From assembly GCA_964433245.1 (NCBI GenBank), contig CAYSRH010000001.1, forward strand, positions 1 through 27,999: DNA of 27,999 nt, read 5' to 3'. The position numbers were made by a program, and so were the translations under genes. Position 1 is the first letter of the stretch, and every line of letters starts with the position of its first letter. Source of the DNA: an uncultured Bacteroidales bacterium. Lineage in GTDB: Bacteria > Bacteroidota > Bacteroidia > Bacteroidales > JBBRXJ01. Below, one piece after another: positions 5,368-11,321 of this stretch. Below the pieces are notes generated by a model. It did no database searches, was not told where the DNA came from, and was given only the letters and a program-made list of their open reading frames with translations.

Positions 5368-6051
5368 TTATCTGGCATAGGCACAATCTTTCTGATTACA
5401 TAAGTGGCAGGTATAGTTGTTATACTTAACATTCCGTCCGACGCCAATCATCCCGCTTACCGACTTAATAGGAGTCATCAAAGCTGAATCGTTCAAGGTG
5501 ATTCCTGATCTGTTATTCGGAAAATAGCGAAATAATTTATGCTGCTCATCTACTGGCCACTTACAATATCCGGGGCTGTATTTATTGGTGGTTTTCAGAC
5601 CTTGTTTTGCTGCCTCTTCTGCGATGACGTTGTGTGCATAGGTTGCCACTTGTTCGGCCAATACAGAACCTATCGTATCAGCCACATAAGCAATGGCAGG
5701 ATCATTCTGTAAGTGACATTGTTTGATGTATGCCTCTGCTTTACTGCCGGTGGTACTGATAAAGAAGACAACTTTTTCAGACTTCTTCAACAAACTGAAA
5801 ATGACCTTGTTAACAGAGAATGAGGCCGTAGGAGTAATAATTTGATGTGTTTCTTTCTCCCACCTGACTTCATTTTCTTCAATCCACTCGACATGAAATT
5901 CAGTTAGCGAGAATAACTTCTTCGCTACAGTCTCAATATAAGACGAAAAAGGTTCTGTTACAGATTCAAGGTTCTCAAAACCCATAATCTGAGCTATCTC
6001 ATGCAAAGGAATGTTATGAGCATGACCTTTTATATACTTTGGTTTTTCCAT
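5368..6051 (-). CDS. Stand-alone B12-dependent methionine synthase activation (reactivation) domain protein
   Basis: KYSPGYCKW...EQHKLF and GITLNDSALMTPIKSVSGMIG match the SAM-binding SPGY and LT...MxPxKSVS motifs; C-terminal CHLCNQKDC. Confidence 0.85.
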   Translation of the reverse strand: MEKPKYIKGHAHNIPLHEIAQIMGFENLESVTEPFSSYIETVAKKLFSLTEFHVEWIEENEVRWEKETHQIITPTASFSVNKVIFSLLKKSEKVVFFISTTGSKAEAYIKQCHLQNDPAIAYVADTIGSVLAEQVATYAHNVIAEEAAKQGLKTTNKYSPGYCKWPVDEQHKLFRYFPNNRSGITLNDSALMTPIKSVSGMIGVGRNVKYNNYTCHLCNQKDCAYAR

Positions 6052-6950
6052 TGTTTATTTAGTAAAAAAATATCAGCAAGCATCTGCTGATGTCCTGCTT
6101 CACTAATGGCAACGAGCTCTGTTCCACCTGTATAAGCACTTAAAGGAACGTTCGTTTCCTGATCAAAACTTTTTTGTACCATAAGCGCACTGTCCCTGCC
6201 AATCTTGACTACTCCTTTCACCCTCAAACAAGACGAAGGAATTTGACTAAAAAACACATCTGCATTAAAAGAGGGGTATATATAAGGAGTTTGGTACACA
6301 GCAGTACAAATGAGAGGTCTTTTTTCAGGAACTCCCTCTATTTTGTGTTGACTTAATCTTTTTTCCCAGAGTGATTCCATTTCATGAGCTGGTATTTTAC
6401 ACCAGTCTGTAACACACTGTCTGGCCAAAGGATTAAGTTGAGACAATAAAGTTTGTAAAGGTTCCACAGGATTAATCCCTTCTGCCTTATTGATAATGAT
6501 CAGGTCAGCCACCTGGATCTGATGCTTTACACGCATGTTAACACGTGCCAGATTCTGTATATGGTTGGCATCAACAAGAGTCCATACTTGTTGTAAATAA
6601 GCCTTTTGGCTGAGTGGTTTTTGTGCGAAAGATTCTGTTACAGCGATGGGGTCAGCCAGCCCGGAAGCTTCAATAATCAATAAATCCGGCTTATGTTTGT
6701 CGATAAAATCAGCCGATTGCGTAATAAAGGAAGCCAATTTGCAAACACAAAAAAGCGAGCCGTTATTTACTTCCAGCACTGTAAGTTCATCAAATTCTCG
6801 ACTTAGCTCAGCACTGTCAACATTGACGGGTGCAAAATCATTTTGTACAATGGCAATTTTTTTATTGTTTCCATAGCTGCGCAATATCTCTTTTAAAAGT
6901 GTTGTTTTACCACTTCCTAAAAACCCTGTAACCAACAAAATAGGAACCAT
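6030..6950 (-). CDS. COG0523/CobW-like G3E P-loop GTPase (putative metallochaperone)
   Basis: LVTGFLGSGKTT (Walker A), metal motif NGSLFCVC, IEASGLADP (Walker B ExxG), QIQVADLIIINKAE, and CobW_C-like LRVKGVV. Confidence 0.88.
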   Translation of the reverse strand: MVPILLVTGFLGSGKTTLLKEILRSYGNNKKIAIVQNDFAPVNVDSAELSREFDELTVLEVNNGSLFCVCKLASFITQSADFIDKHKPDLLIIEASGLADPIAVTESFAQKPLSQKAYLQQVWTLVDANHIQNLARVNMRVKHQIQVADLIIINKAEGINPVEPLQTLLSQLNPLARQCVTDWCKIPAHEMESLWEKRLSQHKIEGVPEKRPLICTAVYQTPYIYPSFNADVFFSQIPSSCLRVKGVVKIGRDSALMVQKSFDQETNVPLSAYTGGTELVAISEAGHQQMLADIFLLNKQWKNQSI

Positions 6951-8314
6951 TATTTGGTCTTGTTTTTGATGTAATTGTTAATTGTTTCTTGCAGCTTATT
7001 CATTGTGGGAATCTGTGAGATAAACTCAACATTTCCATCAATGCAGATTGTGGGAATATTTTTCACCCCGAGAGAAGCCATCATTTGCACACCATCACGA
7101 GACTTGATGCTGTGCTCCTGCCAGCTTACATGCTCCTCGTTTCCTTTTATCGCATTTTTCACAGCTTCTACCATATACTGACAAGGTGCGCAAGAAGAAG
7201 AATCCAGCGTAATAATATCCACCACCACTTTTTTGTCTTTCCACCTCTGCGACAAATCAAGCATTTCCACCTTTTGTTGTTCTGTTATTTTCTTCGCTCT
7301 AACCACATCTTGCAAGTACGGGTCTTTGACCAATTCTGATACCGCTTTCAGGTTTTTAACCGGCGTATCCATAGGCAGATCACATCCAGGAGCAAGTACA
7401 AAGCCTTTAGCTCCTGCCAGGTCCATGCATTCCAGAGCATCTCTTCGGGAGTCATCCTCGTCACCCATTAACAAAACAACTGTCAGTTTCATGTTACCGC
7501 CAAAGCTGACATTGCTTTTTATTGCGATATCCCTGACATAGTCGAGAGGGATATTCTCATCAATAGATATATTGTCAGGTTTACAGGCGCACATGGCTTC
7601 AATGTTATGCTGTGCATGTCCGCAAACAAAAAAAGAACTTAATGCTTTGGCTTTTCTGATGTGCGAAAACAAGGCGACAGCATGGGGCGACACATAGGTT
7701 TCGAATGAAAAGGGATCAATCTGGCTGGTCATTGGATCCACCACGGCAATGATATCGCAACCCGCTTCAATGTACCAGTCAGCCATAGACATCGCCACAT
7801 GATTACAAAAATCAAGCACGGCATTTGTTTTCTCGGGATCCTCCATCATCTTGATGAATATGTCTGTGCCCATAAGATGGAGAGCCAGGGTAAAAGGACC
7901 CGTAATCAATCCATATATTGCCAGGTCAGGGTAAGCTTCACGGATTCTTCTTGTTGCCTCCATGACAAGTCCGATACGACCTGTTTTACTATCGGGCAAG
8001 TTTAGGCTGCTCAATTCTCTGCCTTCCATCAAAGGATGAGATATTACTGCAGGCGGATTGTCATCAGCCCAGGCCAATGCACATCCCAGGGCTTCGGCCT
8101 CAATCTGCAAATCAAATGTAACCGGGATTCCATCAGGTTTATAAAGATTTACTGCTTCTGTCACCGCATCAACTATATAATCCGAAGATTGTAAATATTC
8201 GGTTGCTGTTTTGTTTATCAGCTTAGCTCCATGGACACCAATAAAAGGCACCCAAGGGGTTCTATCCACATCCTCTAACTTAAATGCTTTGTGTATTCTC
8301 TGTTTTCCAGTCAT
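6950..8314 (-). CDS. MtaA/CmuA-like (URO-D superfamily) corrinoid methyltransferase fused to a C-terminal thioredoxin-like CxxC domain
   Basis: MTGKQRI...DRTPWVPF, DLQIEAEALGC, ITGPFTLA, VVDPMTS, FVCG, GGN and LAPGCDLP are MtaA/CmuA-type motifs. The last ~90 aa contain CAPC and NIPTICIDG (thioredoxin fold). Confidence 0.85.
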   Translation of the reverse strand: MTGKQRIHKAFKLEDVDRTPWVPFIGVHGAKLINKTATEYLQSSDYIVDAVTEAVNLYKPDGIPVTFDLQIEAEALGCALAWADDNPPAVISHPLMEGRELSSLNLPDSKTGRIGLVMEATRRIREAYPDLAIYGLITGPFTLALHLMGTDIFIKMMEDPEKTNAVLDFCNHVAMSMADWYIEAGCDIIAVVDPMTSQIDPFSFETYVSPHAVALFSHIRKAKALSSFFVCGHAQHNIEAMCACKPDNISIDENIPLDYVRDIAIKSNVSFGGNMKLTVVLLMGDEDDSRRDALECMDLAGAKGFVLAPGCDLPMDTPVKNLKAVSELVKDPYLQDVVRAKKITEQQKVEMLDLSQRWKDKKVVVDIITLDSSSCAPCQYMVEAVKNAIKGNEEHVSWQEHSIKSRDGVQMMASLGVKNIPTICIDGNVEFISQIPTMNKLQETINNYIKNKTK

Positions 8315-10293: not shown

Positions 10294-10304
10294 AATAGCT
10301 TATT

Positions 10305-11321
10305 TTAGAATGATCTACGGTCGATAAATTGACATTGATTTTCAATTGATATTTGTTTCTTTTCTTTTATCAAACGCACCAGACTCTTCCCCATTGCCTC
10401 AAAATCAGTAGATATCGTAGAAACACCATCCCCGATAACAGATTTTAACAACGACTCATTATAGGAAAGCAGACCAAGGTCATGTCCCAACAGAAGACCC
10501 TTTTCTTTTGCCTGAACAACGACCTGAACCATATCTTTATCGTCTATTACAATATAGCATTGTCCCTTCTCGACAATGAGTTCATCATTTCGCATGGAGG
10601 TAATCATTCTACATCTTAACTCTTCTTGCTTGCAAAAATTGCTAACCCCATCAACCAACTCAAGAGGAGGTTGTGTGGTGCTATCGCGGAAGAAAAAATT
10701 CAAACAAATATACTTTTTGACACTGTCAATATGTTGTTTTAATACAGAAGCAATGTCCTTAGAAAAATTCTGCCAAACACCTATGTGTGGTAGTGCATAT
10801 GCTGCGGGTTTCCTGTCTATAAGAAAAGTCCGGTCATAAGGCAACTGTGCAATGGACTCGGTAATAGCAGGGTGATCAAATGGCGAAATAACATAATGTG
10901 TATAGTTCGCTTTGGCTTCAGTAATTAATTTATGAAAAACTTTATAATTGTAATGATGAAAAAAAAACTCTACCTCTCCCGATTCATTCAACTCCTTTTT
11001 TATTGCATCCAGCATGGGTAATTTATAGGCATTGAGGTTTGCTTCCAGCAAAAAAATCCGGTACGCTTGAGCAAGATCTTTTTTTGCTACGAAAAATCCC
11101 CGCCCTTGTTGTGCTTTAACAAGACCTTTTTCTTCAAGAATCCTAAACGCTTTTACGACTGTTTCCCTCGCCAACGAATATTGACTAGCTATTTCATTAA
11201 TTGACGGGAGTTTGTCTCCTATCAACATTTCCGGATCCTGGATGAACTTCTCCAAAACATCAACAACCTGCTGATATTTTGGCACATGCGCAGAAAAAAT
11301 AATATCCTCAATCCGTTCCAT
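10305..11321 (-). CDS. GntR-family regulator with a C-terminal LacI-type/periplasmic-binding-protein-like effector domain
   Basis: N-terminal wHTH PKYQQV...GDKLPSINEIA...ARETVVKAF..L...G....QGRGFFV; 338 aa; C-terminal DLGLLSYNES...ISTDFEAMG is typical of sugar-binding effector domains. Confidence 0.9.
   Translation of the reverse strand: MERIEDIIFSAHVPKYQQVVDVLEKFIQDPEMLIGDKLPSINEIASQYSLARETVVKAFRILEEKGLVKAQQGRGFFVAKKDLAQAYRIFLLEANLNAYKLPMLDAIKKELNESGEVEFFFHHYNYKVFHKLITEAKANYTHYVISPFDHPAITESIAQLPYDRTFLIDRKPAAYALPHIGVWQNFSKDIASVLKQHIDSVKKYICLNFFFRDSTTQPPLELVDGVSNFCKQEELRCRMITSMRNDELIVEKGQCYIVIDDKDMVQVVVQAKEKGLLLGHDLGLLSYNESLLKSVIGDGVSTISTDFEAMGKSLVRLIKEKKQISIENQCQFIDRRSF

Follow-up and report, generated by a model that had tools for sequence, protein, structure and literature searches.

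Glycans of plants, algae, fungi, invertebrates and bacteria contain O-methylated sugars, such as 4-O-methyl-glucuronate, 2-O-methyl-fucose and -xylose, and 3-O- and 6-O-methyl-galactose and -mannose, which obstruct ordinary glycosidases and kinases. How could a glycan degrader remove such a methyl group without oxygen? The question is raised by a cluster of six genes in a 27,999-nt stretch of DNA from an uncultured Bacteroidales bacterium (GenBank assembly GCA_964433245.1, contig CAYSRH010000001.1, positions 1 to 27,999), hereafter the window. The cluster occupies positions 5368-11321 of the minus strand, and all window coordinates refer to the whole stretch. It encodes a regulator, two proteins of the uroporphyrinogen decarboxylase (URO-D) fold that we call enzymes A and B, a corrinoid protein, a COG0523/CobW-family GTPase and a stand-alone MetH-type activation domain. 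On balance, we favor the view that this operon is a three-component corrinoid methyl-transfer system for the oxygen-independent demethylation of an O-methylated sugar, either a hexose or a related polyol. The only characterized sugar demethylation route that we found, in a literature survey of incomplete coverage, is an O2-dependent cytochrome P450 reaction.

The six open reading frames (ORFs) are co-oriented, and their spacings computed from ORF coordinates are, in order, 11, 37, 19, -1 and -22 nt. This arrangement and the domain content had been described in an earlier sequence-only reading of the same DNA and were confirmed throughout by the ORF coordinates, Pfam and NCBIfam. The corrinoid protein matches B12-binding_2 (4e-16) and B12-binding (9e-26) in Pfam and presents the DxHxxG motif as GDLHDIG; its closest NCBIfam models are those of the MtgC/MtbC corrinoid proteins, all with scores under the model cutoffs. 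Six-frame phmmer searches and Pfam comparison of the remaining ORFs found in the window no RACE/RamA, no PF02574 homocysteine-binding domain, no MtaB/MttB and no pterin-binding gene. The earlier statement that the window lacks MtaB/MttB, a pterin-dependent second methyltransferase and an ASKHA activase therefore stands, but RACE does accompany the activation domain in some relatives. In the gene orders given below, Reg, Cor, CobW and Act designate the regulator, corrinoid protein, GTPase and activation domain, SugarTr a sugar-porter transporter and SMT a PF02574 homocysteine-binding protein.

Enzyme A is a long and divergent member of its fold. The Pfam match to URO-D (5.5e-17) is confined to the C-terminal half of the protein (residues 210-414), and comparison with the PDB sequences, either as a single sequence or as a profile, gave no meaningful match. 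In fold, the AlphaFold model (predicted local distance difference test 90.5) most resembles MtaA of Methanosarcina mazei (4AY7), which ranks before true uroporphyrinogen decarboxylases and MetE; the model also shows an additional beta-rich insertion (about residues 75-135). Alignment of the family revealed an invariant H307-x-C309-G, corresponding to the HxCG motif of MtaA, and an invariant H394 at the position where MtaA carries a cysteine as its third zinc ligand. A-like enzymes share this harder HxC/HxD...H signature, whereas B and a third paralogue, UroD334, retain Cys...Cys. In the URO-D superfamily, O-demethylases replace cysteine zinc ligands and S-methyltransferases retain His-Cys-Cys (Kountz and Balskus 2023; PMC10418091). 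The His-Cys-His site of A, set against the Cys-Cys of B and UroD334, fits this published rule. We propose that A is the substrate-specific methyl donor enzyme, an O-methyl-sugar:corrinoid methyltransferase. The family is large, with more than 8000 matches scored and 1207 clusters at 50% identity with E<=1e-30, and its identity amounts to 54-68% across at least 13 phyla (Bacteroidota, Planctomycetota, Verrucomicrobiota, Spirochaetota, Acidobacteriota, Fibrobacterota, Lentisphaerota, Myxococcota, Gemmatimonadota, Omnitrophota, Calditrichota, Ignavibacteriota and Bacillota). Identical copies of the window A gene are present on other contigs of about 3 kb, including one that derives from a microbial-mat metagenome.

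The genomic surroundings of A point to sugars. ORFs were called in 80 genome loci carrying A, their neighbors were clustered and the recurrent clusters were annotated. Counted over all A loci within 6 kb, these neighbors comprise a sugar-porter MFS transporter resembling XylE/GlcP (23 loci), a glycoside hydrolase (GH) of family GH2 closest to the beta-galactosidases GalA/GalB (19), a 189-aa protein without Pfam or NCBIfam match (12), a GFO/IDH/MocA dehydrogenase (11), a GH120-like beta-helix protein (8), an orthologue of the window regulator (7), a sulfatase (7), a hexokinase (6), an alpha-L-fucosidase (5), a 3-keto-disaccharide hydrolase (5) and a ROK kinase (4); the counts drop when the set is restricted to the 52 loci flanked by at least 3 kb on either side. 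Among these 52 well-flanked loci, 38 have sugar genes (transporters, glycosidases, kinases) within 6 kb, against 7 of 25 B-centered control loci (Fisher p=2e-4); the corresponding figures are 18/52 against 0/25 for GH2 and 16/52 against 1/25 for SugarTr. Several gene orders recur, such as A-SugarTr-GH2 in Rikenellaceae and Bacteroidales, SugarTr-GH120-A-fucosidase-hexokinase-GH2 in Prolixibacteraceae, and also Reg-SugarTr-A-GH2, A-ROK kinase and A-hexokinase-Act. These comparisons favor the central idea of the sequence-only reading, and the window order A-Cor-B-CobW-Act itself recurs in one further locus (L105). Judging from its neighbors, A may act on methylated residues of galactose, glucose or mannose in fucosylated or xylosylated glycans, and a hexose ready for phosphorylation is a likely product. 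An attempt to name the exact sugar gave no single answer, the GH2 being GalA/GalB-like and the transporter XylE/GlcP-like, next to hexokinase, ROK kinase, fucosidase and GH120-like genes. Two further neighbors deserve mention in their own right. In the A-SugarTr-GH2 loci of Rikenellaceae and Bacteroidales, the gene of the 189-aa protein (L032, positions 216-785, and 11 other loci) lies upstream of A in divergent orientation; the protein may be a regulator or an accessory factor. A PhyH-family Fe(II)/2-oxoglutarate dioxygenase gene directly follows A and precedes the corrinoid genes in loci of Cytophagales and Cyclobacteriaceae (L006, positions 1829-2689, and also L010 and L020).

The regulator associates A with sugars from another side. 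It contains a GntR helix-turn-helix (HTH) domain (1.2e-14 in Pfam) and a weak Peripla_BP_3 match (5e-4, under the cutoff), and its orthologues are annotated with a Peripla_BP_3-type domain. Its architecture is AraR-like, combining the GntR-type HTH with an effector domain of the LacI/periplasmic-binding-protein type. Orthologues scoring 237-287 bits adjoin A in six loci (L001, L002, L021, L024, L050 and L094), including the Reg-SugarTr-A-GH2 operon, whereas the regulators of the hubs built around B, described below, match the window regulator at about 40 bits only. This orthology with regulators of plain sugar operons, taken together with the neighbor counts, indicates that A handles a sugar or a sugar-like molecule. 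The earlier proposal of O-methyl sugar demethylation is strengthened to the extent that A and its relatives accompany genes of sugar uptake and catabolism across phyla and share this regulator; the function itself is a prediction. Upstream of the regulator, the candidate Bacteroidota -7 promoter element TATCTTTG (TAnnTTTG) lies 42 nt before the ATG; a TAnnTTTG promoter had already been noted in the sequence-only reading. The motif occurs at chance level in the window, with 31 observed and 34 expected occurrences, so that TATCTTTG is compatible with a promoter and proves nothing; we discarded it as proof of a promoter, and its position alone is suggestive. A 19-nt direct repeat (TACAAAAACACTAAAAAAA and TACAAAGATACTAAAAAAA, 40-nt spacing) overlaps both this motif and the start codon of the regulator and may constitute an operator.

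The methyl-transfer side of the proposal relies on the loci where A and corrinoid genes come together. Minimal sets, to all appearances complete, consist of A-Cor-SMT-Act (L010) or A-Cor-SMT (L013 and L076), and in another locus A is flanked by SMT and Cor on opposite sides (L046); these sets are found in Cytophagales, soil Bacteroidota, Bryobacterales and Verrucomicrobiota. A larger version, Reg-A-UroD334-Cor-B-SMT-CobW-Act, is encountered in L002 (a 7.3-Mb genome), L014, L008 and L148. Taken together, A stands in operon order with the corrinoid protein, SMT and the activation domain in Bacteroidota, Verrucomicrobiota, Acidobacteriota and Myxococcota. SMT most resembles the N-terminal modules of MetH, BHMT and the bifunctional homocysteine methyltransferase/MTHFR, so that clusters encoding SMT evidently use homocysteine to accept the methyl group. 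The earlier suggestion of homocysteine as acceptor agrees with these sister clusters, but the module concerned is a separate SMT and not B, and none is present in the window. Puteibacter caeruleilacunae has A, the regulator and a GH120-like gene on one contig and, on a second contig, Reg-UroD354-Cor-B-CobW-Act next to genes for GH38, a sugar porter and a sulfatase. The same species also harbors a short A-like URO-D gene with an HxD...H signature, whose operon partners (L086, positions 13463-21359) are a sulfatase, a creatininase-family protein, an SASA/GDSL esterase, a DHDPS/NanA-like lyase, a NANM-type mutarotase and an SSF transporter; this company suggests a demethylase for an O-methylated sialic-acid-type sugar.

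Enzyme B resembles the methanogen methyltransferase MtaA much more openly. It matches URO-D in Pfam (3.2e-60), and its NCBIfam matches to MtaA/MtbA range from 1e-50 to 2e-37, the score against MtaA_Meth (5.9e-48, 163 bits) staying under the equivalog cutoff of 400 bits. A sequence search against the PDB retrieved MtaA (4AY7) at 1e-25 and 26% identity, and the model of B superimposes on 4AY7/4AY8 with template modeling scores of 0.88-0.89 at 2.2-2.3 Å. Its C-terminal tail is a Thioredoxin_3 domain with a CAPC motif, which is invariant in the family together with Cys231, Cys242, Cys296 and Cys311. About half of the family are 539-aa forms, mostly from Cyclobacteriaceae and Cytophagales, with a second C-terminal thioredoxin-like domain. 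We propose that B is the thiol-side methyltransferase. Its closeness to MtaA and its Cys-Cys site make the role of acceptor enzyme plausible; it could equally be a second, thioether-type donor, and it may be reversible. As to the earlier assignment of A as donor and B as acceptor, the window has two URO-D-fold enzymes with differing zinc signatures, whose putative roles are drawn from gene context.

The neighborhoods of B define a hub. In 80 metagenome loci containing B, with denominators of 66 or 39 depending on the feature, a corrinoid gene was found within two genes upstream of B in 57/66, CobW downstream in 37/39, SMT in 21/39, the activation domain after B-CobW in 22/39 and a RACE activase in 5/39. 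The typical organization is Cor-B-[SMT]-CobW-[Act]-[RACE] with a divergent AraC-type gene, brackets marking optional members, often beside sdhCAB. Other URO-D genes (A, UroD334, UroD354) join the hub only sometimes and vary, B being the constant corrinoid partner; Saccharicrinis fermentans has Reg-Cor-B-CobW-Act-RACE without any donor enzyme, and L087 is among the relatives with RACE. As side observations, the divergent AraC-type regulator is present in 27 loci and a GntP-family permease lies upstream in 9, and the Cor-B-SMT-CobW hub adjoins succinate dehydrogenase/fumarate reductase genes in L088, L113, L129, L140, L146, L164 and others.

The last two genes of the operon would serve maintenance. 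The GTPase matches cobW (1.6e-37 in Pfam) and has the Walker A sequence GSGKTT, its canonical CxCC metal motif being reduced to CVC. Subfamily 13 of COG0523 co-localizes with corrinoid methyltransferases (Haas et al. 2009; PMC2770081), and the window GTPase is probably a metallochaperone for zinc enzymes or for a cobamide site. The activation domain matches Met_synt_B12 (1.1e-10 in Pfam) and contains RYSPGYC, which includes the R-x-x-x-G-Y motif binding S-adenosylmethionine (SAM); this sequence and a CxxCx4C motif are conserved in 40 homologues. The C-terminal CxxCx4C (C214, C217 and C222) and the cysteine of PGYC (C163) occur in at least 90% of these homologues. MetH itself lacks the C-terminal CxxCx4C of the stand-alone proteins, which may bind a metal or an Fe-S center and could act as an internal electron relay for reactivation.

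What we observed directly are the genes present, their order and conservation, the folds and the neighborhoods; from these we infer how the catalytic steps proceed, which class of substrate is used, in which direction B works and what accepts the methyl group, as follows. The regulator would sense the sugar. Enzyme A would hold the methyl ether at its His-Cys-His zinc site, where the Co(I) corrinoid protein would attack the methyl carbon to give methyl-Co(III) and the free sugar, the latter being passed to kinases, glycolysis and ordinary catabolism. Methyl-Co(III) would then be discharged to a thiol, in the sister clusters via the homocysteine-binding protein to yield methionine. The sole candidate for this discharge in the window is B, with its Cys-rich zinc site and redox-active thioredoxin domain, and the acceptor might be homocysteine, sulfide or a low-molecular-weight thiol. 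Should the cobalt slip to Co(II), the activation domain would rescue it by reductive remethylation with SAM and a reductant, and the GTPase would load metal into the enzymes.

Does this scheme correspond to a known system? The aryl O-demethylases of acetogens and Desulfitobacterium (OdmABCD, VdmB and MtvABC) share with it a URO-D-fold donor methyltransferase, a small corrinoid carrier, the attack of Co(I) on a methyl ether, as well as a factor devoted to reactivation. Like their donors, A is a URO-D-fold enzyme in which a cysteine zinc ligand is replaced (H307/C309/H394). These demethylases, however, act on phenyl methyl ethers, use a pterin-binding MeTr-type acceptor that methylates tetrahydrofolate and depend on an ATP-dependent RACE/ASKHA activase. 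No pterin-binding MeTr-type methyltransferase II was found among the window ORFs or among the recurrent neighbors of 160 related loci, and since the window contains neither a tetrahydrofolate methyltransferase nor RACE, the system falls outside the acetogen-type O-demethylases. The methanogen systems MtaABC, MtsA and MtpCA have in common with the window a protein structurally close to B, namely MtaA, as well as a corrinoid protein and zinc-thiolate chemistry, and COG0523 genes also adjoin methanogen methyl-transfer systems (PMC2770081). In contrast, the window has no MtaB/MttB-type first methyltransferase, coenzyme M or RamA, its host is a Bacteroidota glycan degrader, and B carries a Phe in place of the zinc-binding His in addition to its thioredoxin domain; B thus shares the fold and sequence family of MtaA/MtbA and departs from their H-x-C...C zinc site.

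Another parallel is offered by the type 1 mlp clusters of non-methanogens, which combine several URO-D-fold SCMT homologues with a corrinoid protein, lack a tetrahydrofolate methyltransferase and have a thiol as the proposed methyl sink (Kountz and Balskus 2023; PMC10418091). The window shares with them the several URO-D homologues, the corrinoid protein and the absence of a folate enzyme. These clusters are defined by Mlp2 and Mlp3 with His-Cys-Cys sites and by RACE, are mostly found in Firmicutes and are linked to sulfur/selenium genes; the publication describing them is silent on Bacteroidota, sugar genes, CobW and the MetH activation domain (PMC10418091). We considered and rejected type 1 mlp membership: the His-Cys-His of A, the Phe-Cys-Cys of B, the absence of RACE from the window and the sugar neighbors set the system apart by the published mlp features. 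MetH has an equivalent of the B12 cap and binding module and of the SAM-dependent activation domain, and the sister clusters add a MetH/BHMT-type homocysteine domain. The window differs from MetH by URO-D-fold enzymes in place of the methyl-tetrahydrofolate (pterin) module, by the distribution of the modules over separate proteins and by having no PF02574 domain. MtgBCD of Ruegeria pomeroyi, whose MttB-type donor enzyme acts on glycine betaine, provides an example of one corrinoid module shared by methionine synthesis and an alternative methyl donor (PMC12478193). The removal of sugar methyl ethers is also accomplished by the cytochrome P450 6-O-methyl-D-galactose demethylase of marine Bacteroidota, which is encoded beside glycan-degradation genes, needs O2 and redox partners and releases formaldehyde (PMC6292453, PMC10033563); it performs the same task as the system proposed here with an unrelated fold, cofactor and products. 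As the sequence-only reading had surmised, our literature survey found no characterized system of this make-up, neither a corrinoid- or B12-dependent sugar or cyclitol demethylase nor such a gene combination, in a coverage of subscription journals that is incomplete, so that this absence is not proof.

Several observations weigh against sugar demethylation by A with discharge through B. A corrinoid module lies within 6 kb of A in only 8 of the 52 well-flanked loci and none does in 85%, so that the corrinoid partner of most A genes is assumed. As most A genes are far from corrinoid genes and the corrinoid-B-CobW unit recurs without A, the earlier qualification of the operon as self-contained is doubtful. 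Cleaving an aliphatic methyl ether involves a poorer leaving group than in the aryl ethers of the known O-demethylases, and to our knowledge the Zn-activated methanol of MtaB is the only precedent for such aliphatic chemistry. The window contains no homocysteine-binding domain. The zinc-ligand His of the MtaA HxC motif is a Phe in all 25 aligned B proteins, both cysteines being retained (FxC...C), and the GFO/IDH/MocA neighbors of A would equally fit O-methyl inositols or cyclitols. Finally, the frequent Cor-B-SMT-CobW-Act clusters without a nearby URO-D gene are complete only if B is a donor, which conflicts with B as acceptor. The dilemma is symmetrical: with B as a sink, nothing is missing from the window and about eight loci like it, but the common Cor-B-SMT clusters would possess two sinks and lack a source; with B as a thioether-type source, the Cor-B-SMT clusters are complete, and the window and its approximately eight counterparts have no sink. 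The latter case leads to a rather unlikely alternative, a split folate-independent methionine synthase or a methyl-sulfur/selenium salvage system, in which B would be a thioether or selenoether donor like MtsA, MtpA or Mlp, the sink a homocysteine-binding protein encoded elsewhere in the genome, and A a further donor onto the same carrier. In methanogens, the source enzyme is linked to its corrinoid protein and the second methyltransferase is unlinked, which counts for this alternative. So do the 21 of 39 B loci with Cor-B-SMT-CobW(-Act), which frequently lack a further URO-D gene within 10 kb, the GntP-type permease and AraC regulator upstream of many hubs, the soft Cys-Cys site and invariant redox-active CAPC domain of B, and the precedent of the mlp clusters (PMC10418091). 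It is countered by at least eight loci, including the window and L105, that pair an A-like enzyme with Cor-B-CobW-Act in the absence of SMT and would thus have two sources and no sink, and by the proximity of B, in sequence and in structure, to the acceptor-side MtaA. It also leaves untouched the sugar link of A, which survives whether B is a sink or a source.

The other alternatives concern A itself. Improbably, its substrate could be glycan-associated without being a sugar, such as the methoxylated aromatic aglycones of plant glycosides, lignin fragments or O-methyl cyclitols like pinitol. In favor of this, sugar-porter transporters also carry inositols. GFO/IDH/MocA proteins similar to inositol or levoglucosan dehydrogenases occur near A in 11 loci and GH36-like genes in a few, and the known URO-D-fold donors OdmB, VdmB and MtvB act on aryl methyl ethers (PMC10418091). 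However, A directly adjoins sugar porters, hexokinase and ROK kinases, beta-galactosidase-type GH2 and fucosidase, no aromatic-catabolism genes are found among its recurrent neighbors, and the effector domain of the regulator is of the sugar-binding type. That A could be a URO-D-fold decarboxylase or another sugar-modifying enzyme instead of a methyltransferase, with incidental corrinoid neighbors, we regard as very unlikely. The large share of A loci devoid of a corrinoid gene within 6 kb, the cofactor-free nature of URO-D itself and the HemE-like 'N-x-x-H-N' segment kept by A would agree with it, but the MtaA-type HxCG is invariant in A, MtaA is the best structural match, and A is joined with the corrinoid protein, SMT and the activation domain in four phyla, too often and too widely for chance. 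Least probable of all is a biosynthetic direction, in which SAM and the corrinoid protein would O-methylate sugars for a cell-surface glycan; the activation domain is of the SAM-binding type and corrinoid methyl transfers are reversible in principle, but the genes that recur nearby serve catabolism (transporters, exo-glycosidases, sulfatases and kinases) and include neither glycosyltransferases nor nucleotide-sugar genes, and the SMT homocysteine modules are methyl acceptors.

Extending the demethylase reading beyond the window leads to a more tentative proposal, to which we give somewhat less than even credence. Enzyme A and its shorter paralogues may represent an unrecognized class of corrinoid-dependent glycan O-demethylases, organized as spokes placed in sugar loci, each devoted to a different sugar (hexoses, perhaps sialic-acid-type sugars or cyclitols), around one shared hub composed of the corrinoid protein, B, CobW, Act and an optional homocysteine module or RACE. 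Such an organization would link glycan methyl groups to methionine or volatile methyl-sulfur compounds in at least 13 phyla without oxygen. Anaerobic life, which the sequence-only reading had implied, is not required for it, since the family is also present in metagenome-assembled genomes (MAGs) of Cytophagales, Bryobacterales, Gemmatimonadales and Opitutae. If true, glycan degraders of the anaerobic gut, sediments and digesters would have an oxygen-independent means of demethylating sugars, and glycan degradation would acquire a new B12 requirement, relevant to corrinoid cross-feeding. Co(I) chemistry would be extended to aliphatic methyl ethers beyond methanol, polysaccharide turnover would be connected to methionine supply and possibly to methanethiol emission, and thousands of genes annotated 'uroporphyrinogen decarboxylase family protein' would receive a testable function.

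Table 1. Features of the cluster and of its surroundings in the window
Feature	Position	Strand	Remarks
Regulator, GntR HTH and sugar-binding-type effector domain	10305-11321	-	338 aa
Enzyme A, long divergent URO-D-fold protein	9037-10293	-	418 aa
Corrinoid (B12-binding) methyl carrier protein	8334-8999	-	221 aa
Enzyme B, MtaA-like URO-D fold with thioredoxin-fold tail	6950-8314	-	454 aa
COG0523/CobW-family GTPase	6030-6950	-	306 aa
Stand-alone MetH-type activation domain	5368-6051	-	227 aa
Candidate -7 promoter element (TAnnTTTG)	11363-11370	-	in 207-nt intergenic region
19-nt direct repeat	11321-11339 and 11361-11379
Hemerythrin-domain protein and LuxR-type regulator	3978-5283	-	14-nt overlap
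TAnnTTTG downstream of the cluster	5326-5333		in 84-nt gap
Fib_succ_major lipoprotein, 112-aa lipoprotein and 324-aa protein	11529-14041		upstream of the cluster
Tandem AraC-family proteins	14554-16956		385 and 386 aa
SprB-repeat/PKD/CHU_C type IX secretion cargo protein	22912-27924		1670 aa

The genes bordering the cluster were considered as further members of the system and discarded (Table 1). The hemerythrin and LuxR-type genes directly downstream, on the same strand, have no homologue near A or B in about 160 loci and possess their own TAnnTTTG in the gap that separates them from the cluster; this pair is probably a separate unit. The three genes upstream, of which the 324-aa product has no family match, are not conserved with A. 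An Rfam scan of the window detected no cobalamin riboswitch and no other Rfam family, and scans for sigma-70 promoters and terminators, whose models are unsuited to Bacteroidota, gave matches no commoner than in shuffled sequences. The Bacteroidota origin of the window is confirmed by the SprB/CHU_C type IX secretion cargo and by the relatives of its RpoN, whose best match does not exceed 71% identity and which shares about 61% with Marinifilum and Bacteroidales MAGs. The two tandem AraC-family proteins are 40% identical to each other and have membrane-like N-terminal halves, and their genes sit in the part of the window with the lowest GC content (31-32%).

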